Positions 47,290 to 59,725 of a stretch of DNA of 64,000 nt are shown here, piece after piece. Every line of letters begins with the position of its first letter. The first letter of the stretch is position 1. A program made the translations under genes and the position numbers. The notes beneath the pieces are model-generated. The model did no database searches, was not told the origin of the DNA, and saw only the letters and a list, made by a program, of their open reading frames with translations. Source of the DNA: Promethearchaeota archaeon (GTDB lineage Archaea > Asgardarchaeota > Lokiarchaeia > Sigyniarchaeales > SOKP01); assembly GCA_016840165.1 (NCBI GenBank), contig JAEOSU010000038.1, positions 25,816-89,815 of the forward strand, written 5' to 3'.

Positions 47290-47658
47290 TTAATCCGTAT
47301 TATCAAATCGATATTTATTATAGGCTGCTCTTGTTAGCCCAACATAATTATCAGAAATTTTATAATATAATTTTCCATCCATCACTTTTTTCTCTACATA
47401 ATCATTCTTTAATGCATGATTGAGGGAATTTACCATAGTTCCAAGGGTTACCGCGCCCATATACTTCTGCTGTTTTTTTGCCATGCGAATTAATTCTAAC
47501 TCTGAGTGCCAATTTCCATCTAATAGTTCCATTAAAATTCCATTCTTTACTGGCGTCTTTATATCTTTAATTTTATTAAAAAGATAAGAATAGTCAGGTC
47601 TATAATACTTTTTAAGTAGCTTAGCTTGAACAAAATCATTATTATCGGGATTTTCCAT
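47290..47658 (-). CDS. Winged-helix protein
   Basis: ILMELLDGNWHSELELIR...VEKK..DGKLYYKI. Confidence 0.6.
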   Translation of the reverse strand: MENPDNNDFVQAKLLKKYYRPDYSYLFNKIKDIKTPVKNGILMELLDGNWHSELELIRMAKKQQKYMGAVTLGTMVNSLNHALKNDYVEKKVMDGKLYYKISDNYVGLTRAAYNKYRFDNTD

Positions 47659-47790
47659 ATATGATCACACTCACTAAATTTAATTTAGTTCTATGATATA
47701 ATATCGGAATAATATTTTTAATGAGTTGTAATATGCTTGTAATACAAAAGTGTTCAGATTTTTAATTAATTGGAACAGTATTAATAAGCA

Positions 47791-48906
47791 TTACAATAAA
47801 CCTTCAGGTACTCCGTCCTTGAAATATTGTGCTCTAGTTATCCAGTTTTTGGAAAATTCGGGGATCATTGCTAATATGGAACCACCAACCCATACTGAGA
47901 AAACTCTTTCCCGAGGAGCGATTATTTTAATCGTTTGACTCTTTTTTTTTCTTTTTGCTAATCCCACTTCCAATTCCTGATAGATTCGGGATTTGATGTT
48001 TTGAAACATAGAAGATCCTCCTGATAGAAATATATTATTTAATAGATCGGGTCTAATATCAAGATCACACATTTCAATTACGTCTAATATTGCTTCTGGC
48101 AGCGAAATCTCTTCTAATTCTGGAGTTGGATTAAACAATAATTCAGGTACTTGAAACCTTTCCTTGCCAAGCGTGATAGTGGAGCCATCGGGAAGTGAAT
48201 ATGGTTTTTCATATTGTTCAACCCTTTTTAGATCCTCTTTATAATCGAGAGAAACAAAACATGCTTTTTCTTTTAATGCCCTTACTAATTCTCGACGTAT
48301 CGAGGAATCGGCTGAGTAACCGGTTTCCCCTAAGATCTTTTCCATATAACGAGTAAGGGTTCTGCCCCCGGTTTCTAAATATTTAATTGCATGATCCAAT
48401 TTATACCCTTCATAAATAGGAACAATTCTGGTAATACTATCTCCAATTTCAATAACTAAACCTGTTTGAAATCCTCCAGAATAAAGAGTTAACATTGAAT
48501 CTAATACAGGATAAAACGCCATACACTGATAATGTTCTAAAAATAATTCAAATAATTTCTCTAAATCCTTTCTAGGAAAAAATGGATGCGTGGCAAATAA
48601 AACGTTCACTAGGCTTGGATCAACTCGTAAATTATAAAAGATATAATCAATAATTTTTTCAAAATATCCCCAATCTTGGATAATCCCTTTTTCAATAGGA
48701 TAGAATATTTTATACAATCCTAGTGATTGGATCTCATCTCCAATAAAATATTCGTCCTTTTTAATTCCACCGTAATCAAAATCAATTTGTTGATATTTTG
48801 ATTGACCCACTATTGTAAAAAAGACTAAACTTGGATTGTCTTCCCCTGCAAACCCACATTTGGTTGCAAACTGCCCAATATCTAAGATTACAGTTAGATT
48901 AGCCAT
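47791..48906 (-). CDS. Actin-family protein (divergent Asgard actin-related protein)
   Basis: ILDIG..TKCGFAGEDNP, YPIE.G...DW, VPIYEGY, KEKACFV, YSLPDG, ERFQVPELLFNP, LSGGSSMF, SVWVGGSILA. Confidence 0.96.
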   Translation of the reverse strand: MANLTVILDIGQFATKCGFAGEDNPSLVFFTIVGQSKYQQIDFDYGGIKKDEYFIGDEIQSLGLYKIFYPIEKGIIQDWGYFEKIIDYIFYNLRVDPSLVNVLFATHPFFPRKDLEKLFELFLEHYQCMAFYPVLDSMLTLYSGGFQTGLVIEIGDSITRIVPIYEGYKLDHAIKYLETGGRTLTRYMEKILGETGYSADSSIRRELVRALKEKACFVSLDYKEDLKRVEQYEKPYSLPDGSTITLGKERFQVPELLFNPTPELEEISLPEAILDVIEMCDLDIRPDLLNNIFLSGGSSMFQNIKSRIYQELEVGLAKRKKKSQTIKIIAPRERVFSVWVGGSILAMIPEFSKNWITRAQYFKDGVPEGLL

Positions 48907-48954
48907 GAAAGTTGAATGAATTTAATGTTACTATATTCTATGATAAGATATTCT

Positions 48955-49701
48955 TTATACTAATAAAATCTTTAGGGGAGTATAGGTTGTTTCTGGGATA
49001 AATGATTCCCCATATGAAGAATCAATTTCGTTACCGCGTAAGATTGCAGTATCTTCTGCCCAATCTAAGACTCTCTCTAATACTTCTTTTTGAGAAGTAT
49101 ACACTTGTGAAAAGATTTCTTTCTTTTTCATCCAATAATGTTCAATATCAACAATTATGAATACTGAGCCTTCAATATATTGAAACTTACATGAAGGTGA
49201 TTCATAATAGTAAACACCATGAGGTTTCCAACTTCGCTCATGGCCTCCATATGCTTTGCCACTGGAACAATGATAGATTGCTTCCCTTGTTATTAAGGAT
49301 AAATTACGATGTACGCGGTGAAAATCAGAAAAATGGGGTATAAGAATGATATTTGGACGCAAATCACGGATCAAATTAGTTATTTGCGAGACCTTATTAC
49401 GTGTTATCTGCAAATCGGTGTAACTCAAACCCACTATCTTACAATTCAAGATTTTTTGGATAGCATCTAATTCAATTTTTCTTTGAGCAAGTATCCGGTC
49501 TTTCTGTTCATTTTTAGCATATCCTCCTAAACCCGATGTTGCTACTACAATGATGATTTCTGAGCCCAACTCTTGGTACTTAAGTAAAGTTCCTCCACAT
49601 GAAATAATCTCATCATCAGGATGCCCTGCAAACACCATAATTCGTTTTGGTACTACAATGGGGATATTTGTATCACAAATGAGATATTGATTTTGCTCCA
49701 T
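48955..49701 (-). CDS. PIG-L family (LmbE/BshB-like) N-deacetylase
   Basis: AGHPDDE, GGTL, DFHRVH, YTSQ, GESF. Confidence 0.92.
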   Translation of the reverse strand: MEQNQYLICDTNIPIVVPKRIMVFAGHPDDEIISCGGTLLKYQELGSEIIIVVATSGLGGYAKNEQKDRILAQRKIELDAIQKILNCKIVGLSYTDLQITRNKVSQITNLIRDLRPNIILIPHFSDFHRVHRNLSLITREAIYHCSSGKAYGGHERSWKPHGVYYYESPSCKFQYIEGSVFIIVDIEHYWMKKKEIFSQVYTSQKEVLERVLDWAEDTAILRGNEIDSSYGESFIPETTYTPLKILLV

Positions 49702-49787
49702 AAATAAATGAATGAATTTAATAGGTTAAAAAAGTTATGACAACAAATCAGGAAAAAGTAAACGTGAGAAAGAAAGCTGTTTTGTTT

Positions 49788-50477
49788 TTATTCTCCTCTC
49801 ATAATTTTCTTTAAACGATTAAGTTCTTCTAACATTTCGTCTCGTAAAGAGCTTAATCCTCCTCCAGGTTTAGGTGCTGCCATTGGAGCAGTTGCAGTTG
49901 CAACAGGGGCACCAGGTGGTCTTGGAGTAGCTCCTGCGGGGGGAGCTGCCGGAGGTCCGGGACGTTTAGCAAATGTAGGTGCTTTTACAATACCAGAACT
50001 CGGTGCTTGAGGAGGGGCCGAACCTGGTGCGGGAGGAAGTTTTGGAGCAGGAGGAAGGCCTCCTCTTTTGGGAGGACCGCTACTGGGTGCTTTGGGAGGA
50101 CCACTACTAGCAGGAACCTTAGGAGGTCCAGCAGTAGGTGGTTTAGGTAAGCTAGATGCGGAGGAAGCTGCAGGGGTAGCTGCCGCTGGAGTACCTGTGG
50201 CTGGACTACCACTCAATAAGTTAAAGAGAGTACTTGCCGCAGCAGTTTTTGCGGTACTAGGTGCTGTTGGTCTCGCTATTTGCTTTGAAGAGGTGCTGAC
50301 CGTGGTGACTTCAGGTTCTACAGCGACTTCTTTCAAATCTTTCATTGCTTTATTCAAAGATTTAATAAAATCATTTATTCCCTTAACTGTATCTTCAAGA
50401 TCATCGGATAATGAAGTTAATCCTTTTTTCATAAAATTAATGACGCGTTCTAGTTTTTTTTGTTCTTTAGAAACCAA
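49788..50477 (-). CDS. Coiled-coil + proline-rich protein with C-terminal amphipathic helix (WH2/VASP-like)
   Basis: N-terminal heptads; GPPK x3, LPPAP x2; C-terminus GGGLSSLRDEMLEELNRLKKI. Confidence 0.75.
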   Translation of the reverse strand: MVSKEQKKLERVINFMKKGLTSLSDDLEDTVKGINDFIKSLNKAMKDLKEVAVEPEVTTVSTSSKQIARPTAPSTAKTAAASTLFNLLSGSPATGTPAAATPAASSASSLPKPPTAGPPKVPASSGPPKAPSSGPPKRGGLPPAPKLPPAPGSAPPQAPSSGIVKAPTFAKRPGPPAAPPAGATPRPPGAPVATATAPMAAPKPGGGLSSLRDEMLEELNRLKKIMRGE

Positions 50478-50749
50478 TATTTACTCAAATCCTCTCGTTT
50501 TTTCAATAGTAGAATAATTAATATATATTTATAGTGATAATTCTATTATATTAATTTTTATTTTTATTTTTATATTTTTATTAAATTTTTCTATAGACCG
50601 TCCCTAAAAAATTAATTTTCAAATTTCAGCGAAATCTGAAAAAAATAAGTATTAAAAATGCGAAATCTAATAATATTATAAATAGTTATATACTATATTT
50701 CATTTGATAATTTTAATAATAATCCTTTAATATTAATAGGTGGTTTGTT

Positions 50750-51016
50750 ATTCCTAAGCGTGAACTCTTCATTAAAAGAGTCTATGAAATAGTAAATGAG
50801 CTTAAAATACCCTTAATCGATGAGCGAGTGTATGATAAGGTTGGTTTTAGTACTGGCGCTGCTATCGCTAAGGTTACTTTTAAATTCGAAGAAGATGAAA
50901 GTGTAATTCGAGGATTTCTTGGCCTTGCGGAATATTTCCATACAGTTGTTATTAAAAAAGGCGACCAGTTCTTTATTCCTCATGCATCTATTCTCTTTCA
51001 GCTGGTAAGTTCATAA
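50750..51016 (+). CDS. Small hypothetical protein (~88 aa); probable ATT start
   Basis: Frame open upstream of GTG 50828 (IPKRELFIKRVYEIVNELKIPLIDERV...); SD AGGTGG at 50738-50743. Confidence 0.6.
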   Translation: MPKRELFIKRVYEIVNELKIPLIDERVYDKVGFSTGAAIAKVTFKFEEDESVIRGFLGLAEYFHTVVIKKGDQFFIPHASILFQLVSS

Positions 51017-51183
51017 ATTATTATTTTTTTTACTTTTCTTTTAAATTTTGAGGCTTATTCCTTATATAACCTAATTAAAACAATAATTCTTATATAATTT
51101 GAATTTTAATTTAAATTTAAAAGAAGGAAAACAAAATAAGGATTAATATTTATATAGATCACATAGATTGACACTAAAGGACA

Positions 51184-52404
51184 ATGAGAGATAAAAAATT
51201 AGACCTCTTAACCAAGTTTTTAGATGCATCACAAGTCATTAATATAAAAAAATTAAAGCTGGATGATATTGCCAACTTACCGACCTCAAGCTTTAAGTTT
51301 TTGACAGATGCAGATGCTGCGCTTTTCCAAGAATTATTAAACATCTCAACGATACGTCAATTTGCAGACCTTGACCCAGAGGAACCATTCTCAATCTTAT
51401 ATGAGGATAAAGCTACCAAACGAAAAATTGAACATATTCTCCAAACCGACCTTGAAATTGAGGAAAAGTTGCAAAAAGCGGTAACAATATCTTGTATAAT
51501 TAAGCGGATTCAAGAGGAATCAGAATCCTATGTATCTAAGGAACAAAAAATTGTCGTTACTGGGTTGGCAAATGCTGGAAAAACTACCATTTTACGTAAA
51601 TTTGGTGGTCAAATTGGAATTAAAGATTTAGCGAAACTCGCACCCACAAAAGGAGTACAACGAAAAGAGATAGTCACCCCAGATATGGCGCTAATTTTAT
51701 GGGATTTTGGAGGTCAAGAAGAATACAGAAATGTCTACTTGAGTAATCCTGAAAAATATTTCCTCAAGGTAGATCTAGTGATTTATGTCATTGATCTACA
51801 GGATCCTAAGAACTATGAAAAAAGTATCACCTATTTTAAACAGATCCTTGAAGTTTTCGAAAAATTAGAGGAAAGTCCTTACATCTTAATTTTTATCCAC
51901 AAATTTGATCCTGACGTAAAAGATGACCCTGAAATATTGCTTAACGTCGAATTGATAAAAGATATGATTAAAAATATGTTCCAAGAAACAAATAAGCTCG
52001 AATATGAAATTTATATGAGTTCTATATACTCTGCTATTGCTAGTGAACCAAAATTTTCCAGGTATTTAAAAAATACAATGGCACAAACAGGAGTATTAAC
52101 TGAGGGAAAACTGGAAGGGATGGCAACGGTTTTAGAAAGCACCCTAAACGGAATAATTCGATTATCAGAAAGTGTTATGGGTCAATATAATGAACTGGAC
52201 AGTAGAATAAGATCTCTTGAACGAAAAGTTCCTATTGACAAAGCAGAATTAAAACCTCCAATAAAAACAGAGGAAATCCCTTCCCAAACGCCTAGTCAGC
52301 ACTCTGAGGAAACCATAAGAGAAAGTCGGCATGTAAAATCCGCAATACTGGAAGAATTGAATGAACTTTTTGATAAAACCAAAAGACGTCAAAGTTCAAA
52401 ATAG
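51184..52404 (+). CDS. Rag/Arf-like small GTPase with N-terminal HhH-like domain and C-terminal coiled coil/helix
   Basis: G1 GLANAGKTT, G2 PTKG, G3 WDFGGQ, Rag-type G4 IHKFD and G5 SSIY. Confidence 0.85.
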   Translation: MRDKKLDLLTKFLDASQVINIKKLKLDDIANLPTSSFKFLTDADAALFQELLNISTIRQFADLDPEEPFSILYEDKATKRKIEHILQTDLEIEEKLQKAVTISCIIKRIQEESESYVSKEQKIVVTGLANAGKTTILRKFGGQIGIKDLAKLAPTKGVQRKEIVTPDMALILWDFGGQEEYRNVYLSNPEKYFLKVDLVIYVIDLQDPKNYEKSITYFKQILEVFEKLEESPYILIFIHKFDPDVKDDPEILLNVELIKDMIKNMFQETNKLEYEIYMSSIYSAIASEPKFSRYLKNTMAQTGVLTEGKLEGMATVLESTLNGIIRLSESVMGQYNELDSRIRSLERKVPIDKAELKPPIKTEEIPSQTPSQHSEETIRESRHVKSAILEELNELFDKTKRRQSSK

Positions 52405-52529
52405 TATCATTACTAATTAGAATATTACTGCGTTTTTTTTGGTGAAAGCCACTTTACGTCATTTTTAAATAGTCGAAGTTGTTACTTATTTATAAGATAA
52501 TTTTTTCTTAAAAAATAGGGATTGATAAT

Positions 52530-53411
52530 ATGAAAAAAACCAAAATAATAGGCATAATTTTGTTTAGTTTACTCCTTTTATCTACTGTGAATCTTGCATC
52601 TGCAGCACCTCCAAGTTATGTCGGTTTTAGCGCGGGTCAAGAATATATTTGGACGCCAAGTATTAATTTTTCAAATATTAATACAACTGCAATATCTTTA
52701 GTTGGACAGGATAATTGGACCCTAGCCTATTCTATGCTTGAGGAGCTACTTGAAAATGAAACAGGGATGACTTTTGATATGCTGGGAGGCGTTGGCCTAA
52801 GGATGATAATTCATAATGTGACCGATGAACTTATTGACTCCGGAATAAGATACTCAGGTGCGTGGTTCAATATGGATGTTTCATATGCTGCAGGTATTTG
52901 GACTCGAGTAGTTAATGCAACTGATTCTACTTATCCTATGATTCGAATTATAAATCCAGCAGATGTAAATGAATCAACATTTATGTATTTATTTAGTAGT
53001 AGTCCATTTATGCCTATAGGATTAAATTATACTTTTGTCGCAACCCAGCTCAATAATTATTTAAGCGGAAACCCTTATACTGCTGGAAATATGAGTTTAG
53101 CCAAAAAAGATAATGGCTTTCAAATTACAATTTATGGAGACTATTTAGAGATGATGCTTGAGAGTATGGGGGAGCCTTTTAATGAAACTACTTTTGAATT
53201 GGATGATGTAATTGGAATTGTGCGATATAATAGTCTGGGTATACTTGAATATGCTTCAGTTTCATATGGAGGATTAATTCTTGCAAGTGCAGCACTCACT
53301 ACTGGTCTCGGTATACCAGGTTTTACTATTCCATTAGTTCTGGGCATATCGGCTGGGACATTAATTACCGTAATCGTTATTGTAAAGAAAAAGAATAAAA
53401 TAATTATTTAA
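52530..53411 (+). CDS. Surface glycoprotein with Loki-CTERM-like sorting signal
   Basis: Signal peptide, sequons, C-terminal IPGF + TM + KKKNK. Confidence 0.75.
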   Translation: MKKTKIIGIILFSLLLLSTVNLASAAPPSYVGFSAGQEYIWTPSINFSNINTTAISLVGQDNWTLAYSMLEELLENETGMTFDMLGGVGLRMIIHNVTDELIDSGIRYSGAWFNMDVSYAAGIWTRVVNATDSTYPMIRIINPADVNESTFMYLFSSSPFMPIGLNYTFVATQLNNYLSGNPYTAGNMSLAKKDNGFQITIYGDYLEMMLESMGEPFNETTFELDDVIGIVRYNSLGILEYASVSYGGLILASAALTTGLGIPGFTIPLVLGISAGTLITVIVIVKKKNKIII

Positions 53412-53461
53412 ATTCTTTCTTTTTTTAATTCACTTAATAATTTTAAATTTAATAACTAAAT

Positions 53462-53734
53462 ATGGAATTTTTAGATTCATTATTCTTTTTAATTATATTA
53501 CTCGTGCTCCTCTGGAGTGTAAAAGCAGATTTATTTTTTGTTATATTTGGATTTGCTGTTTTAATATTTTTTTTATTTCAGTTATTTTTCATTGATCCAC
53601 TTGAAATATTATTTTCAATAACTTCTTTTTTATTATTAAATCCTGCCGGTTTCATTCTGTTATTCATTCCCTCAATAATTTCTATATTGAAATATATAAC
53701 CACAAAAATTTATAAAAAAAAAAGAGCTAAGTAA
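53462..53734 (+). CDS. Small hydrophobic membrane protein
   Basis: 90-aa hydrophobic ORF with basic tail. Confidence 0.5.
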   Translation: MEFLDSLFFLIILLVLLWSVKADLFFVIFGFAVLIFFLFQLFFIDPLEILFSITSFLLLNPAGFILLFIPSIISILKYITTKIYKKKRAK

Positions 53735-53736
53735 AT

Positions 53737-55386
53737 CTACTCTGTTCTTTTCAACTTTTCTATTCCAATTATTAGCAATAAAAGTGATATGGTAAATGAT
53801 ATGCTAATATTTATCAAGATGATTTGATTGAATCCAACAGTATAATTAAGAAAAGGAGTAAAGGGAATAAAAACAATTAATGATAAAATAAATGATAAAA
53901 CTTGAAGCAATGCTATGACATATATACTAAAATACATAAATTTCCCTTTCTCGTCATAGAGAGGTCTGATGCATTGAATAGCAGTCGCTTGCGTTAAAAT
54001 GATTAAGCTATGTACTAAATATGAAAGAAAAAATACAACAGCCGATAAAGTATCCATTAGAAAAATCAGCGAAAAAATTGCTGTTAATAGAAATGCTAAA
54101 ATCACACAAATAATAGTCATATTATACAAAAAAGAGAAAACGAGAATTTTTACACTTCTAATAGATTTTTTATATAGATAAACTATTTCCTTTGTATGAA
54201 TAAAGACATAAATTCCCATAAAAACCCCAAAAGTTAATCCTCCCATCCAAGATAAAATAAACACTATTGAGTAATTCAAATCAATAACTTCAATTATTAG
54301 AAGTGAATCACCAAATGAAATCTCGGTATTATTTATTAATGGTTTATTTAATGAGAGAGATAAAAATATCCCAAAAACTATATTTAGGGCAATAAGAAAA
54401 ATCATTTTGTTTATATTTTCTTTTTTTCTCACAAATTCCCTAAACTGTGTAATAACGGGAATTCTTATTTTACGTGGAGTTACTTTAGTTATAATTTTTA
54501 AAAAAAACTTTTCAATTTTCTTGGAATATTTTTGCTTTAGTATAGGTTTTTCTAAGTCATAAAATAATTCGGCTTTTTTATATGAAATATAAGCACATAA
54601 TAACGGAACTCCAATGATTAGTATGATATAAAGCCAAAAATTCAAGAAGTAGGTATCGATGGACGTTGGATCTACGAGATGGAGTAAAATATTTGAATAC
54701 CAAAAAGAAGGAAAAAAATTCGTTATGATTTTAAAATCAGGATATACTTCGAATATTTCGAAGATTATATGAAAGCTATATAATGCTAAAATGATTATAA
54801 ATGGTAGAATCGTAAAGAAAAAGTTATTTAGCAATGATTTGCGTGCTTTGGAAAAAATTTTATGTTCTATCCAATTTGCTAAGATATTCCCTACCAATAA
54901 TGCAAAAGCAATTAAAAAAAAAAGATTAATATAAAATAATAGATGATGCCATATAGTTAAATTCGAATTGATTTGCATTAGAACTGCTAAACCTAATGGG
55001 CCTATTGCTAAGACAATTAAAACATAGAATGGTAATTGACCTAAAAATTCGCCTAGAAATATATCTCCCGGTTTTGCGGGAGAAGATGATACTACTTCCT
55101 TTATACCTATTTCAAGTCTTCTGTAGAGCGTGATTAAGGGATAAATTAGGAATACGATAAATAACATCATAAAAGAATATTCAATAATAGGATGAAGAAT
55201 CGTTTCTAAGGAGCTACCATATGTTTTTAAAAGATCCGGTAAAAGTAAATCAATTATATAGGGCCCTAATAAAACTGCCCAGAATAGAAAGAGACCATAA
55301 ATTATCACAAAAAAAACTTTTCTTTGTTTTCTGAACTTAGAGGTCTTTAGTCTTATCTCTTTTTTAGCAATATGATACCAAATCAT
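53737..55386 (-). CDS. Putative ABC exporter permease (double-length)
   Basis: ~12 TM; SSPAKPGDIFLGE; adjacent to ABC ATPase. Confidence 0.7.
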   Translation of the reverse strand: MIWYHIAKKEIRLKTSKFRKQRKVFFVIIYGLFLFWAVLLGPYIIDLLLPDLLKTYGSSLETILHPIIEYSFMMLFIVFLIYPLITLYRRLEIGIKEVVSSSPAKPGDIFLGEFLGQLPFYVLIVLAIGPLGLAVLMQINSNLTIWHHLLFYINLFFLIAFALLVGNILANWIEHKIFSKARKSLLNNFFFTILPFIIILALYSFHIIFEIFEVYPDFKIITNFFPSFWYSNILLHLVDPTSIDTYFLNFWLYIILIIGVPLLCAYISYKKAELFYDLEKPILKQKYSKKIEKFFLKIITKVTPRKIRIPVITQFREFVRKKENINKMIFLIALNIVFGIFLSLSLNKPLINNTEISFGDSLLIIEVIDLNYSIVFILSWMGGLTFGVFMGIYVFIHTKEIVYLYKKSIRSVKILVFSFLYNMTIICVILAFLLTAIFSLIFLMDTLSAVVFFLSYLVHSLIILTQATAIQCIRPLYDEKGKFMYFSIYVIALLQVLSFILSLIVFIPFTPFLNYTVGFNQIILINISISFTISLLLLIIGIEKLKRTE

Positions 55387-55413
55387 TTTTTATAATCGAA
55401 GTTTATTATTCAT

Positions 55414-56199
55414 TTATTTCAAAATTCCAGTTTTCTTTTCCCAATTTGATAATTTATTGTTGTTAATGCCCATGAACTTGATATATGCGTCCTCCAAATT
55501 TTTTGCTTTCACTGATTCCATAATTTCTTCAGGAGATCCTTGAATTTTCATTACACCTTTATCTATAATACCAACAATGTCACATAGATCCTCGGCTATA
55601 GTGGTAATATGAGTAGAAATGAAAAATGTTTTGTCTGCGTTATTTATTAGACTAAATATAAGGTTTTTCACCATATTTGCTGCTGCGGGATCAAGATTTG
55701 ATGTTGGTTCATCTAAAAAAACTAGTTTGGGGTCATGAATCAATGTTACACATAAACTTATTTTTTGCTTCATCCCTCTTGAATAGTTTTCTAAGAGATC
55801 ATCTTCCCTCTGGTCTAAATCAAACAGTTCTAATAACTCATCTATTCTCGTAGTTATGATATCCTCTGATAGACGATACAGTGATCCAACAAATTCTAAG
55901 AATTCTCTTGCTGTTAATTTTTCATATAATCCAGGAGATTCAGCTAAAAATCCACAATTCATTTTTACCATATTTTTTTCCTTTTGAATATCATAACCTA
56001 ATACTTTTGCGCTACCAGAGCTAGGTCGGATAATTGCGTTGAGCATTCTAATTGTTGTGGTTTTACCTGCTCCATTTGGACCTAATAGTCCAAAAATCTT
56101 GCCATACGGTATTTTAATACTTAGATTTTTAACTGCTTGAACAGAACCGAAACTTTTAGCTAATTTATCACTGATTATAGCATACTCCTGTGAATTCAT
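55414..56199 (-). CDS. ABC transporter ATP-binding protein
   Basis: GPNGAGKTT, YSRGMKQK, FLDEPT, STH. Confidence 0.95.
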   Translation of the reverse strand: MNSQEYAIISDKLAKSFGSVQAVKNLSIKIPYGKIFGLLGPNGAGKTTTIRMLNAIIRPSSGSAKVLGYDIQKEKNMVKMNCGFLAESPGLYEKLTAREFLEFVGSLYRLSEDIITTRIDELLELFDLDQREDDLLENYSRGMKQKISLCVTLIHDPKLVFLDEPTSNLDPAAANMVKNLIFSLINNADKTFFISTHITTIAEDLCDIVGIIDKGVMKIQGSPEEIMESVKAKNLEDAYIKFMGINNNKLSNWEKKTGILK

Positions 56200-56584
56200 T
56201 TTATTTTTTAAGAGAATTTTTGATTTACGTTCTATTAGTTATTTATAATAGAAATCAATTTATCCATAATTAAGTTTGACTTTTCTTGTCTTCTTAATAA
56301 ATCATTCAAGAAAGCTAAGAAAACTTTTAAATCACTCACTTAGGTAATAATCAATCTATTAATTAATCAACTACATCTAAGGAAAGTATTTTTTATAATT
56401 TTAGAAAGCAGTAATATATCACATATTCTCTCTAATCAACAATCTTTTCATTTTATATCATCAATTTTGGACATTTTTATCCATTAATTCAATAAATATA
56501 AAAACCTAAATTTTGTCTTATTATCTTAATCCAAAATTTTTTGGAGTCGAATTTATCTATAAATTAAGAATATATTGATGTTCT

Positions 56585-58990
56585 ATGAAAAAATTACAAA
56601 AAAGTAGATTTTTAATTTTATTAACCCTACTTATGGTTTCGAGTTTTTTAATGGTGTTTACCTATTTTCCAGCAGTAGTAGCTGGACCCGATATTCCAAT
56701 GGAAAGTGAGTATAATGGTTGGCATTGGGGAGTAGAGGTGGGTGATGAGCTTTATTTTGAGGCAGAAGCTAACATGAGAAATATGAGTTCTGGAGAGGTT
56801 GTTGCGATTTTTCGTGATATCTGGATTTATAACATTAGCTCGATTGAGAATGTTACAATGGAATGGCTTGGGTTTCATGAGTTTTCAGTAGTAAATGCCA
56901 CACGTTGTTATTATGATCCTGATACCATGGATCTCTTTGCTTGGGCGTCTCCCGAGGAATATGCGGTTTTTGGCTTTAATGAAACTGATCCAATAAATCA
57001 TCGATATCGAGCTGGATTTAGCGCGCTTCCACAAATCCTCCCTCTCAATAATAGTGCTTTAGAGCTTGATATCTTAACACCCGTTATTAATGAAACAATG
57101 TATACTCCATTAGCAGACATGGGTGTTTTTAATGCGTTTAATTATTACGAATATAATCCTGCTGCAAACAGTTTGCGATTTGAAAATTCATCAGGTTATT
57201 ATGCTTATGCTGAGTATTATGGAAATAATGGTACATTAAAATATGGTGAAGCCTCGATTTTAGCCAATATGGGAGATCTAATGATGATAAATGTGACAAT
57301 TCAGCGAGTTTTTAATTATGATATTACTGATGAAGTACAATGGGGCCTTGATATAGGAGAATCCGTTTATTATGATTATTATGAAGGATCTAGCGGATTT
57401 GGCGAAGCATATGATTTAAAACTTACTATAACTAACATAACAGATTATATTGTTCCTACTCCAGTTAATAGCTTTTATTTTGGAGAGGATATCCCAATGG
57501 TCTTCCAAGTTGTATTTGCCAATCTGTATGTGTGGAATGGGACCGATTATGAACTCGATGGTTCAGACTTTGTGATGGGAGCTGCTAATAATTTCTATCC
57601 TATGTTATTCGGAGGAGGAAGTCCTCCAGAATTCTTAATGATAATGCCTACTACTGCAACAGTAGAAGATTTAGAATTCATGTGGAATGAAGATAAATTA
57701 CGTATATGGGGGGCTCCACTTGATACTGTTGAATATAATGACAATGCAGAATTGGAATTTATTATCTCAAATTCAACAGGTTCCGAATATATCAGAGGAA
57801 TAGTTGATAAAACAACGGGTTTATTTAAATCATTATTAGCGCTTATGGGAGAAATTATTTATTATGAGCTAAAAGATATGACTTTAGTTGATTGGGTATT
57901 GGAACCAGAAGATACTTTACATTATAAGATAAATGAGAATGATAATGAAGATTCGATTGTTCGAGCGACAATTCTTGGTACTTTTTCTGTTTTTGCTAAT
58001 ATGACTTTACTTGAATTAGATTCTGGAGGATTATTTACAATACCATCTGATCAGCCAGAACTGCAATTCTTTTCAGCAATAATCGCAGATTTTGAAACTT
58101 GGAATCCTTTAACAGAAACTTGGGATTTTGATGCAAGTGAGATGGTTCTTGGTATGGCAAATACCTATTGGCCATTATCTCCCTTAGCTTTTTCAATGTC
58201 TTATGGCTTTCCAGTACTATTTCCGATGGGAGTAGTAGCTAGTGATTTCTCTGGTTTATTTGGGGCTTATAGTAGCATTTATGATGATATTAGCTATGGT
58301 ACTAATTACGTGACTATGACTAATACAACTTTAAATAGACAGCTCAGGCTTCATTTTGATAGCACATCTGGAATGACAACTTTTCTAGGTGGTTGGATCC
58401 GCCAACCAGGGAGTGCTCCCGATGATTGGAGTTACACTTCTGTCTATCCGTTAATCATCGAGAATCCAATTTTAGGTGTGTCAGAAATTGACATTCAAAG
58501 CATTCTGGTTTCAGATATTGAAATATCAGTCAATCTTAATACTAGCGGAACCTTTGAATATTTATATGCTTTGTATCCCTTTAATCCAGTCAATATTTCT
58601 CTTCCAAACGGAACTGCTCTTTGCTATTTTGATCACATCACAACCCACCCAAGTATGATAAGTGAAAATATTACTTTAACCATTACATTACCACTTTCAA
58701 TTAATCTAGCGACAACTCAAGTGTATTTATTTGCATGGAATGTTTCAGGCTCATCAACATGGGAATTGGCTCCTCCAGAAGCCTATGAAATAAATGTCTT
58801 GACTAATAGTATAATCGTTAGTTATCCTGCATTCTCAGCAGATTCTATTATATTTGCATTGTCTTATGACGCGCCTCCTACCCTTCCGGGAATTCCAGGC
58901 TACAATTCGCTGTTACTCATAATGGGGTTAACTTTGTGCGCAATTATAATTGCAAAAATTAAAAGCAAAAAGAAATTCAAATTTAATTAA
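56585..58990 (+). CDS. Large acidic surface glycoprotein with three internal repeats and Loki-CTERM-like anchor
   Basis: Signal peptide; repeats starting WGVEVGDELYF / WGLDIGESVYY / WVLEPEDTLHY; C-terminal IPGY + TM + basic tail. Confidence 0.8.
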   Translation: MKKLQKSRFLILLTLLMVSSFLMVFTYFPAVVAGPDIPMESEYNGWHWGVEVGDELYFEAEANMRNMSSGEVVAIFRDIWIYNISSIENVTMEWLGFHEFSVVNATRCYYDPDTMDLFAWASPEEYAVFGFNETDPINHRYRAGFSALPQILPLNNSALELDILTPVINETMYTPLADMGVFNAFNYYEYNPAANSLRFENSSGYYAYAEYYGNNGTLKYGEASILANMGDLMMINVTIQRVFNYDITDEVQWGLDIGESVYYDYYEGSSGFGEAYDLKLTITNITDYIVPTPVNSFYFGEDIPMVFQVVFANLYVWNGTDYELDGSDFVMGAANNFYPMLFGGGSPPEFLMIMPTTATVEDLEFMWNEDKLRIWGAPLDTVEYNDNAELEFIISNSTGSEYIRGIVDKTTGLFKSLLALMGEIIYYELKDMTLVDWVLEPEDTLHYKINENDNEDSIVRATILGTFSVFANMTLLELDSGGLFTIPSDQPELQFFSAIIADFETWNPLTETWDFDASEMVLGMANTYWPLSPLAFSMSYGFPVLFPMGVVASDFSGLFGAYSSIYDDISYGTNYVTMTNTTLNRQLRLHFDSTSGMTTFLGGWIRQPGSAPDDWSYTSVYPLIIENPILGVSEIDIQSILVSDIEISVNLNTSGTFEYLYALYPFNPVNISLPNGTALCYFDHITTHPSMISENITLTITLPLSINLATTQVYLFAWNVSGSSTWELAPPEAYEINVLTNSIIVSYPAFSADSIIFALSYDAPPTLPGIPGYNSLLLIMGLTLCAIIIAKIKSKKKFKFN

Positions 58991-59014: not shown

Positions 59015-59725
59015 TTAATGATAGTAATAATGTGATTTTTGGATGATTTCCTTAACTTCTGATTCGGGGATATCATACCAGTGCTTATAGGCATCAGCAA
59101 CTGCAAACCACGTTGTTCTTCTAACATTAGGACACTCAATGAAGTCGACTTTATCCTCAAACAGTTTAATTGTATGTAATGGAGCAGTAGGGACAGTTAT
59201 TATGATTTTTATAGGATTATAATTATTTATCATTTTAACTGCAGCGAGCATAGTATATCCAGAGGCTAAGCCATCGTCCAATAAAAAAACCGTTTTCTCA
59301 TAAATTTTATTCTTATAATCCTTATTAGAGATAGATTCTTTGTCATAGAATTTTAATCTCTCCTTAATTTCTTTCTTGGTTAGATTAATTGCGTCGTCTA
59401 CTTGAGCAGGATTTAAATGCAATTGCGATAAAAGACGATTATTCAATATTATGGTCCCATCTGTAGTGATTGAACCAAATCCAGCCTCGGGATTATAAGG
59501 AATTTTGATTTTCCTTACAATTAAAAGATCATAGCGTATCTTAAGCACACTACAAAAACCTTCTGCTACAGGCACTCCTCCATTAGGAATAGCAAATGCT
59601 ATGTAATTATCTGAATTTTTAATAAGCTCTTCATGCATGTTTTGATTTTTCCTAATTAGTAGATTTGCTACTATTTCTCCCGCAGAAAATCGCGATTCGT
59701 AAGGAATGACTTTCATTATATACAA
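59015..59725 (-). CDS. Type I phosphoribosyltransferase family protein
   Basis: AIPNGGVPVA, VRKI..P.NPE, LLDDGLASG. Confidence 0.9.
   Translation of the reverse strand: MYIMKVIPYESRFSAGEIVANLLIRKNQNMHEELIKNSDNYIAFAIPNGGVPVAEGFCSVLKIRYDLLIVRKIKIPYNPEAGFGSITTDGTIILNNRLLSQLHLNPAQVDDAINLTKKEIKERLKFYDKESISNKDYKNKIYEKTVFLLDDGLASGYTMLAAVKMINNYNPIKIIITVPTAPLHTIKLFEDKVDFIECPNVRRTTWFAVADAYKHWYDIPESEVKEIIQKSHYYYH

Follow-up and report, generated by a model that had tools for sequence, protein, structure and literature searches.

Introduction

The regulators of actin described thus far in Asgard archaea are profilins and gelsolins, and polyproline motifs have been called 'widespread' in the corresponding literature (PMC8410842; 10.1101/2025.11.30.690169). 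Divergent actin homologues have also been recognized; for example, UYP44126.1 of Candidatus Lokiarchaeum ossiferum was placed among the actin-related proteins (ARPs) by Rodrigues-Oliveira et al. 2022 (PMC9834061), and Lokiactin transcripts of this species are several-fold above those of its other actin homologues (PMC9834061). Here, we describe a region of a Promethearchaeota archaeon in which an ARP gene lies close to genes encoding a proline-rich (Pro-rich) protein, a small protein, and a GTPase. It is located in a window of 64,000 nucleotides (G000:C15:25816-89815), taken from an assembly of 3.6 Mb with approximately 30% G+C. A first-pass annotation had regarded the region as a candidate actin-regulation locus in which a GTPase, an adaptor, and an ARP would form one module. 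We favour, with moderate confidence, a different reading, namely that the region is a mosaic of three parts with different histories, in which the Pro-rich gene and the small gene would constitute a conserved, as yet uncharacterised functional unit. The literature on Asgard actin regulation that was searched contains no description of this Pro-rich/small-protein family.

The six open reading frames (ORFs) listed by the annotation were recovered by ORF calling at or near the positions assigned to them. The head-to-head layout also holds: a minus-strand run (Pro-rich gene, PIG-L gene, ARP gene, and winged helix-turn-helix (wHTH) gene, separated by gaps of 86, 48, and 132 nt) faces the small ORF and the GTPase gene on the plus strand. 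At E≤0.01, Pfam assigned no family to the Pro-rich protein, the small protein, or the 122-residue product of the last gene of the run, and a scan against NCBIfam added nothing specific for the window proteins.

A conserved pair of genes across Asgard archaea

The Pro-rich gene (49788..50477, minus strand, TTG start, 229 residues), delineated by ORF calling, family alignments, and AlphaFold2, and the small gene (50750..51016, plus strand, ATT start, 88 residues) are not chance ORFs, because they have 212 and 387 homologues, respectively, all annotated as 'hypothetical' and all from Promethearchaeota. The two genes are adjacent in approximately 25 genomes of the genus g1 and in six further genera of family f1, as well as in the Lokiarchaeial families f3 (G038, in the order small gene, Pro-rich gene, PIG-L, the last adjoining the Pro-rich gene), f6 (G057), and f7 (G059 and G060); in G042 (genus g5), a distance of 3 kb separates them. 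In a search across the phylum, 97 of 301 genomes had the small gene, including members of f8, f17, f26, and one genus of f12, which belong to other classes. At six loci of f8, f17, and f26, it lies beside a gene for a Pro-rich protein of 186-212 residues with the same N-terminal helix and C-terminal motif. The genes are directly adjacent and convergent at five of these loci, and one gene intervenes at the sixth (L119). No actin, PIG-L, or GTPase homologue was found alongside the pair at the six loci, where genes for purine metabolism, phosphate transport, and housekeeping functions occur instead. The pair is split in the f2 genera g2, g8, and g9, and the ARP gene adjoins it only in f1. Adjacency is thus retained with differing flanks and orientations in f1, f3, f6, f7, f8, f17, and f26, and it is the sole association in the region that outlasts general synteny. 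Because it outlasts changes in the surroundings, we infer that the two products work together.

The Pro-rich protein has the architecture that the annotation had described. In the AlphaFold2 model based on the family alignment, terminal helices enclose a disordered Pro-rich middle. A long helix spans residues 4-50 (50328..50468; predicted local distance difference test (pLDDT) score of approximately 90). It is followed by a short helical 'island' at residues 73-88 (50214..50261, ending in LFNLLSG; pLDDT 58-70), in which L84 and L88 are invariant across classes, by a disordered segment (residues 89-207), and by a C-terminal amphipathic helix at residues 208-226 (49800..49856; pLDDT 86-89). The last 19 residues are near-invariant in 14 Lokiarchaeial homologues, LR(D/E)EML(K/E)ELxRLK(K/S/T)IM(R/K)G, and the cross-class consensus of the helix is L(R/K)xEM(L/M)xE(L/I)K(R/K)(L/I)Kx(I/L)(M/F), with L211, E214, M215, E218, and K223 invariant across Asgard classes. 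The linker contains GPPK/GPPS repeats and, in most Lokiarchaeia, also LPPPPK(L/M)PP. Sequence and profile searches against Pfam, NCBIfam, and the PDB revealed no relative of this protein. Apart from designed coiled coils, the PDB offered only a chance resemblance to an algal Rubisco linker, and both were discounted as relatives. The profile of the N-terminal helix matches designed coiled coils only, and judging from the model, this helix probably serves as a coiled-coil oligomerizer.

The protein can be compared with those of the Ena/VASP and WASP families, with which it shares a predicted coiled coil, a long disordered Pro-rich region, and a conserved terminal amphipathic helix ending in LKK(I/L). 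However, the order of the parts is reversed in that the presumed oligomerizer is N-terminal, and actin binding would be a matter of analogy. In the EVH2 region of Ena/VASP, the tetramerizing coiled coil is C-terminal and comes after the motifs that bind G-actin and F-actin. The protein also lacks EVH1, GBD, an acidic region, and a Pfam WH2 match, and its obligate genomic partner is a small protein with no fold match in the PDB. Pfam WH2 is absent at E≤0.01. LKK(I/L) is present, with the third position varying among K, S, T, and E, and the spacing from the helix to LKK is shorter than that which we take to be typical of WH2. The missing Pfam match may still leave room for a WH2-like function of the helix.

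A second comparison is offered by the C-terminal linker and peptide of FtsZ and by the E3B peptide of CdvA, in which an oligomerizing core is followed by a disordered linker and a C-terminal docking peptide. The Pro-rich protein resembles these tethers in having a conserved terminal peptide on a variable, low-complexity linker; the resemblance is an analogy, with no relationship in sequence or fold. In the model, the protein comprises an N-terminal helix of 47 residues, a short helix, a disordered Pro-rich linker of approximately 120 residues, and a terminal helix of 19 residues. It might act, together with the small protein, as a multivalent tether presenting terminal helices on flexible arms, with the small protein as partner or cargo. 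That the terminal helix docks onto the small protein is a tentative possibility, and docking onto an actin-family protein is unlikely; the remaining odds go to some other target. A complex prediction for the ARP, the small protein, and Pro-rich residues 190-229 returned a score of 0.00 in a run without controls, which is neither support nor counter-evidence.

The small gene required its own delineation. Standard start codons yield only a 62-residue ORF beginning with GTG (50828-51016), whereas the open frame extends back to 50723. Homologues of other families align from a start of MPK or MAK, which corresponds to ATT at 50750. Across the genus, ATT, ATC, ATG, or TTG occupies this codon, each preceded by GGTG, and in the window a Shine-Dalgarno-like AGGTGG (50738-50743) lies six bases before ATT. 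Based on the homologue alignment and the comparison of start codons, the gene therefore spans 50750-51016 and comprises 88 codons, the first of them the non-canonical start ATT; with standard ORF calling, it is cut short or overlooked. Alignment of 32 sequences revealed 28 invariant columns, and AlphaFold2 predicted a small alpha/beta protein consisting of a helix, a strand, a helix, and a three-stranded meander (pLDDT 92.8). No relative was found in Pfam or the PDB. With this model, Foldseek found nothing in the PDB at E≤0.001, and VIA-align in wide mode gave a best Z of 4.5 and no fold match in the PDB. Matches by shape in the Atlas cover only parts of DUF5305 and UPF0182 proteins, and no fold was assigned from them. 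An exhaustive profile search of 1.8 billion representatives recovered just 27 proteins, all of approximately 90 residues. Additional or tandem copies of the gene occur in some genomes (G049:C341:6192-6833; P0006 and P0042 on the same 6.9-kb contig), and several f1 genomes have a second copy elsewhere, with approximately 60-75% identity.

The actin homologue belongs to a divergent clade

The ARP gene (47791..48906, minus strand) encodes a protein of 371 residues that belongs to the actin family (PF00022, 294-298 bits over residues 5-365, cut-off 27). Its best PDB matches are actins with E of approximately 1e-89, and the best 60 matches listed are conventional actins and not Arps. Among the four actin-family genes of the genome, it ranks third in score, after two Lokiactin-like copies (442 and 428 bits) and ahead of a 510-residue copy (230 bits); its identity to Lokiactin is approximately 44%. 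Orthologues share 80-95% identity within the genus, 63-76% in other genera of f1, and 46-56% in the sister family f2, to which L. ossiferum (G055) belongs. The L. ossiferum orthologue, the best match in that genome, is UYP44126.1 (52% identity), and since this protein has been placed among ARPs, the name is justified in the sense of Rodrigues-Oliveira et al. The window protein is an orthologue that does not differ from it in kind; only the neighbours differ, PIG-L and the pair in the window and a Ras GTPase in L. ossiferum.

The Lokiarchaeial ARP clade keeps the actin fold and most nucleotide-contact residues. In phosphate loop 1, however, D(I/M)GQF (DIGQF in the window) replaces DNGTG, the equivalent of the catalytic Gln137 is changed to Asp or Gly (Asp in the window), and that of His161 is changed to Arg, as also in the window protein. 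All aligned orthologues of the clade, UYP44126.1 included, carry these substitutions, whereas Lokiactins retain the canonical residues. At phosphate loop 1, Gln137, and His161, the window ARP thus departs from a canonical ATP-hydrolysing actin. Given the loss of the catalytic Gln and His, and of Ser-Gly in phosphate loop 1, the sequence suggests that the protein is most likely an accessory actin that binds ATP, is impaired in its hydrolysis, and is not the filament former.

Within f2, the neighbour upstream of the ARP gene depends on the genus. It encodes PIG-L in g5 and g12 and, in g2, g8, g9, and g11, a Ras-family GTPase of 189-197 residues (PF00071, 138-151 bits). The latter gene is directly upstream of and co-directional with the ARP gene in eight of ten genomes (L086:7997-9895 (-), L083:8077-9864 (-), L087:7091-9126 (+), L084, L082, and L081, among others); it is 4.3 kb away in one, and the remaining assembly is too fragmented. 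In L. ossiferum, the two genes are NEF87_000411 and its adjacent upstream neighbour. The closest match to this GTPase in the window genome (59% identity) lies among unrelated genes on contig C66. A gene encoding a Zn-ribbon protein of 450-490 residues is found divergent from the Ras-ARP genes in g2, g8, g9, and g11; its homologues in the window genome are on contig C5 and not near the ARP gene.

The L. ossiferum version of the Zn-ribbon protein, with 452 residues, is GNAMCCOK_00420 of Table S2 in 10.1101/2025.11.30.690169 (50.86 vs. 50.83 kDa), and the mass of its 84-residue neighbour (10.02 vs. 10.01 kDa) supports this identification. In the co-immunoprecipitation values given in that source, it is enriched with Lokiactin (log2 1.01, p 0.012, adjusted 0.047). 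On this numbering, GNAMCCOK_00419, a protein found in the proteome, corresponds to the Ras GTPase, and the ARP would be 00418 (42.21 kDa; the Pro-rich homologue has 26.8 kDa). GNAMCCOK_00421 (10.01 kDa) was considered as the orthologue of the small protein and rejected, since the molecular weights assign it to the 84-residue ORF next to the Zn-ribbon gene. Counting genes, the orthologue is probably GNAMCCOK_00427, which was also detected in the proteome.

The neighbouring GTPase

The GTPase gene (51184..52404, plus strand; PF04670 and PF00025) encodes an Arf/Rag-like protein of 406 residues with three parts: an N-terminal domain of approximately 110 residues, a G domain, and a helical C-terminal extension, as judged from the family alignment. 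Matches to Gtr1_RagA (PF04670) and Arf (PF00025) fall within residues 117-284. That to Gtr1_RagA has 77.5 bits (cut-off 22) but extends over profile positions 1-163 of 232 only; the C-terminal part, where Rag/Gtr proteins have a roadblock dimerization domain, is helical by alignment. The best PDB match is 8yl2_A, a 'GTP-binding protein' (E 1.8e-34, residues 119-350). With GxxxxGKT, WDxGGQ, HKxD, and scores that reach the Pfam cut-offs, the G domain is like those of Arf and Rag (Gtr) proteins. In contrast to RagA/Gtr1, the protein has an N-terminal domain of its own and a C-terminal extension ending in a conserved helix (52333..52377, plus strand). This helix, (K/R)xx(I/V)L(D/E)EL(K/N)xLF(D/E)K, is found in orthologues as well as in paralogues that are not beside a Pro-rich gene; its resemblance to the terminal helix of the Pro-rich protein is real at the sequence level and not specific to this neighbour.

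Apart from the window genome, the GTPase and Pro-rich genes are neighbours only in G034 and G007, whose GTPase orthologues share 91% and 85% identity, respectively. In nine further genomes, among them G024, G023, G016, G033, G026, G019, G013, and G030 (60-86% identity in these eight), the orthologue lies on another contig, and most members of the genus have only paralogues with ≤50% identity. A different arrangement occurs in G018, G012, G008, and genera g18-g22: homologues of the window genes at 59015/59990 or 56585 come after the small ORF there. The GTPase block is not at this position in the six other f1 genera. The block (51184-58990) comprises genes for the GTPase, a 293-residue secreted or membrane protein, membrane proteins of 90 and 549 residues, an ABC ATPase, and an 801-residue protein. 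It is lineage specific at this site, because the small ORF has other downstream neighbours in relatives. The GTPase is one member of a large paralogous family and would have reached this position in the common ancestor of three closely related species, along with the genes for membrane proteins and the ABC transporter. A copy with 82% identity was found on a 3.9-kb contig (G046:C150) of a genome from another family, which could be due to bin contamination or transfer. The inclusion of the Rag/Arf-like GTPase in a regulatory module, which the annotation had suggested, is therefore not borne out, as gene order, named in the same annotation as the feature that could overturn it, is not conserved.

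The remaining genes of the minus-strand run

The order wHTH, ARP, (PIG-L), Pro-rich gene, and small ORF is kept in approximately 30 genomes of the genus and also in genera g18-g22 of f1. However, genes for a topoisomerase and a PAS histidine kinase and the downstream genes are equally syntenic in this family. Because such unrelated flanks are just as conserved, the link between the ARP and Pro-rich genes in f1 reflects general synteny and carries little functional weight. In f2, the distance between these genes is 44 kb in G044, 71 kb in G042, 100 kb in G050, and 270 kb in G055, and they are on different contigs in other f2 genomes. The conservation of gene order that had been envisaged thus applies to the run from ARP to Pro-rich gene across f1, but the run is dispersed in f2, and the GTPase is not part of it.

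The PIG-L/LmbE-family deacetylase (48955..49701, minus strand, 248 residues) is a member of PF02585 (77.1 bits, cut-off 28.2). It reaches only 79 bits against the BshB1 model (cut-off 182) and is also below the cut-offs of the BshB and MshB equivalogs. In g5, the PIG-L gene is directly upstream of the ARP gene on the same strand, touching or overlapping it, and in g12, the two genes are convergent. PIG-L is missing or reduced to a 79-residue remnant in L134, L136, and L140 (f1, g18 and g22), where the remaining cluster is intact.

The 122-residue winged-helix-like protein (47290..47658, minus strand) was characterized by ORF calling, language-model neighbours, and synteny. Its neighbours in the Atlas are Promethearchaeota clusters of 'HTH arsR-type' (scores 0.96-0.97), and it shares 36% identity with residues 480-556 of the protein encoded by L083:15403-17079. 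Its gene is downstream of the ARP gene throughout f1. In f2, this domain makes up the last ~80 residues of longer proteins (558-791 residues) without Pfam domains (L083:15403-17079(-), L087:906-3281(+)), which are encoded a few kb from the ARP orthologue.

Candidate mini-introns in the small gene

In nine relatives, the small gene contains an in-frame stop within an insertion of 30-33 nt, at one of two sites (L064:897-1193(-), L063:2394-2690(+), L132:207-503(+), L055:871-1164(-), L130:208-501(-), L128:198-491(+), L129:203-496(+), L131:213-503(+), and L061:828-1121(-)); the gene in the window itself has no intron. Eight insertions follow codon 8, in g1 and g18 (f1) and in a second gene copy in g8 (f2), and one follows codon 22, in G024. 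By definition, an archaeal bulge-helix-bulge (BHB) intron has a 4-bp helix set between two 3-nt bulges that lie on opposite strands; each bulge is cut once, and excision restores the gene (10.64898/2026.10.13.758758). In each of the nine copies, the sole excision that restores the conserved protein coincides with this geometry, with the cuts falling behind the second nucleotide of each bulge and with an inner hairpin that varies. The pairings UCAU/GUGA, UCAU/GUGG, and UUAU/AUAG occur in the central helix, the last being a compensatory change relative to the first, and CCGU/GCGG occurs at the second site. The chance of a 4-bp match at the one correct splice is approximately 0.02 per independent case. 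A reading as GT-AG introns was rejected, as it breaks the frame, and so was a reading as mobile repeats, as the inserted sequence occurs once per genome.

The closest described case is the BHB intron of crenarchaeal cbf5 (PMC2738675), which is likewise a short insert in a protein gene, with a 4-bp helix and two 3-nt bulges, whose excision restores the frame. The present insertions, which are predicted from sequence, differ in gene and phylum, in being only 30-33 nt long, and in occupying two sites within a gene of 88 codons. A recent preprint describes BHB introns as abundant in Asgard tRNA genes, together with a two-subunit EndA, and the available portion of its text does not mention protein genes. 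The insertions are candidate BHB mini-introns in an Asgard protein-coding gene and would add Asgard archaea to the groups in which BHB splicing of protein genes is known.

Alternative explanations

Several observations weigh against a mosaic in which only the pair is a unit. In f1, the cluster of ARP, wHTH, Pro-rich, and small genes holds over a range of 63-95% ARP identity, and in four f2 genomes (G050, G054, G055, and G044), only 8-19 kb separate the small gene from the ARP gene. Given this clustering and proximity, a real functional connection of the pair with the ARP is conceivable. In addition, the small gene of f12 (g63) has no adjacent Pro-rich gene, and the Pro-rich and terminal-helix architecture resembles that of eukaryotic actin assembly factors.

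The first alternative, which we consider improbable though deserving of attention, is that the f1 run from the Pro-rich gene through PIG-L and ARP to wHTH forms a true operon with cooperating products. For instance, regulation of the set could fall to the wHTH protein, or PIG-L could modify a glycoconjugate linked to ARP function. This explanation agrees with the shared strand and short gaps, with an order kept in seven f1 genera, and with the position of PIG-L against the ARP gene in g5. Nonetheless, some f1 genera have lost PIG-L while the cluster is unbroken (L134 and L136), the flanking housekeeping genes are equally syntenic, and the cluster is broken up in most of f2.

Less probable still is the explanation in which the Pro-rich and small proteins form an Asgard factor for actin assembly, with Lokiactin and, in genomes that have it, the ARP as targets. 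In this scenario, the role of the Pro-rich arms would be to recruit profilin-actin or another factor and that of the C-terminal helix to bind actin in the manner of WH2 or of the VASP F-actin segment, while the coiled coil would oligomerize the protein. The conserved coiled coil, the GPPK repeats with LPPPPKLPP, and the terminal helix ending in LKK(I/L) are compatible with such a role, as is the clustering of the pair with the ARP throughout one family, f1. The motif presumably also resembles the VASP segment GGGGLMEEM...RRRK, a likeness that we take as a lead only. On the other hand, neither Pfam WH2 nor any other match was obtained at E≤0.01, and the distance from the hydrophobic helix to LKK is one turn shorter than in WH2, if the spacing that we assume for the latter is correct. 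Moreover, the pair has no actin-family neighbour in other classes, nor any outside Lokiarchaeales, and its range exceeds that of the ARP clade. Finally, according to the summary in PMC8410842, published Loki and Odin profilins did not bind VASP polyproline.

The notion that the neighbouring GTPase switches a Pro-rich adaptor whose C-terminal helix engages the ARP, as a counterpart of GTPase-controlled nucleation-promoting factors, is very hard to sustain, since, although the genes are adjacent here, in G007, and in G034 and both proteins end in a linker and a similar amphipathic helix, (K/R)xxΦLxELxxL, neither the rest of the genus nor six other f1 genera show such adjacency, the GTPase helix is family-wide and shared by paralogues located elsewhere, and the Pro-rich family extends to lineages in which no ARP-clade orthologue was found and the best actin is at the level of Lokiactin (44-46%).

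Conclusions

The gene models, architectures, substitutions, and synteny patterns are results of the analysis, and all statements on binding and function are inferences from them. Taken as a whole, the proposal of an actin-regulation locus stands in part. It retains the Pro-rich architecture, the deep conservation of the pair, and a Ras GTPase, different from the one in the window, before the ARP gene in four f2 genera; it loses the GTPase next door. The removal of the Rag/Arf-like GTPase as a candidate leaves three concrete objects in its place: a phylum-wide gene pair whose Pro-rich scaffold is eukaryote-like in architecture, a clade of ARPs in which catalytic residues are degenerate, and a Ras-GTPase-ARP pair in the cultured L. 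ossiferum. Questions of filament nucleation, filament elongation, and their linkage to signals in Asgard archaea go beyond the known regulators, profilins and gelsolins. Within this context, a bolder possibility, which we regard as quite improbable, is that the pair is an Asgard-wide, pre-eukaryotic factor for actin assembly or actin-membrane tethering, analogous to Ena/VASP or WASP, and that the ARP clade, operonic with a Ras-type GTPase in the Lokiarchaeum lineage, is a GTPase-controlled accessory actin. If this is true, no archaeal actin regulator other than profilin and gelsolin would have been known before these proteins.

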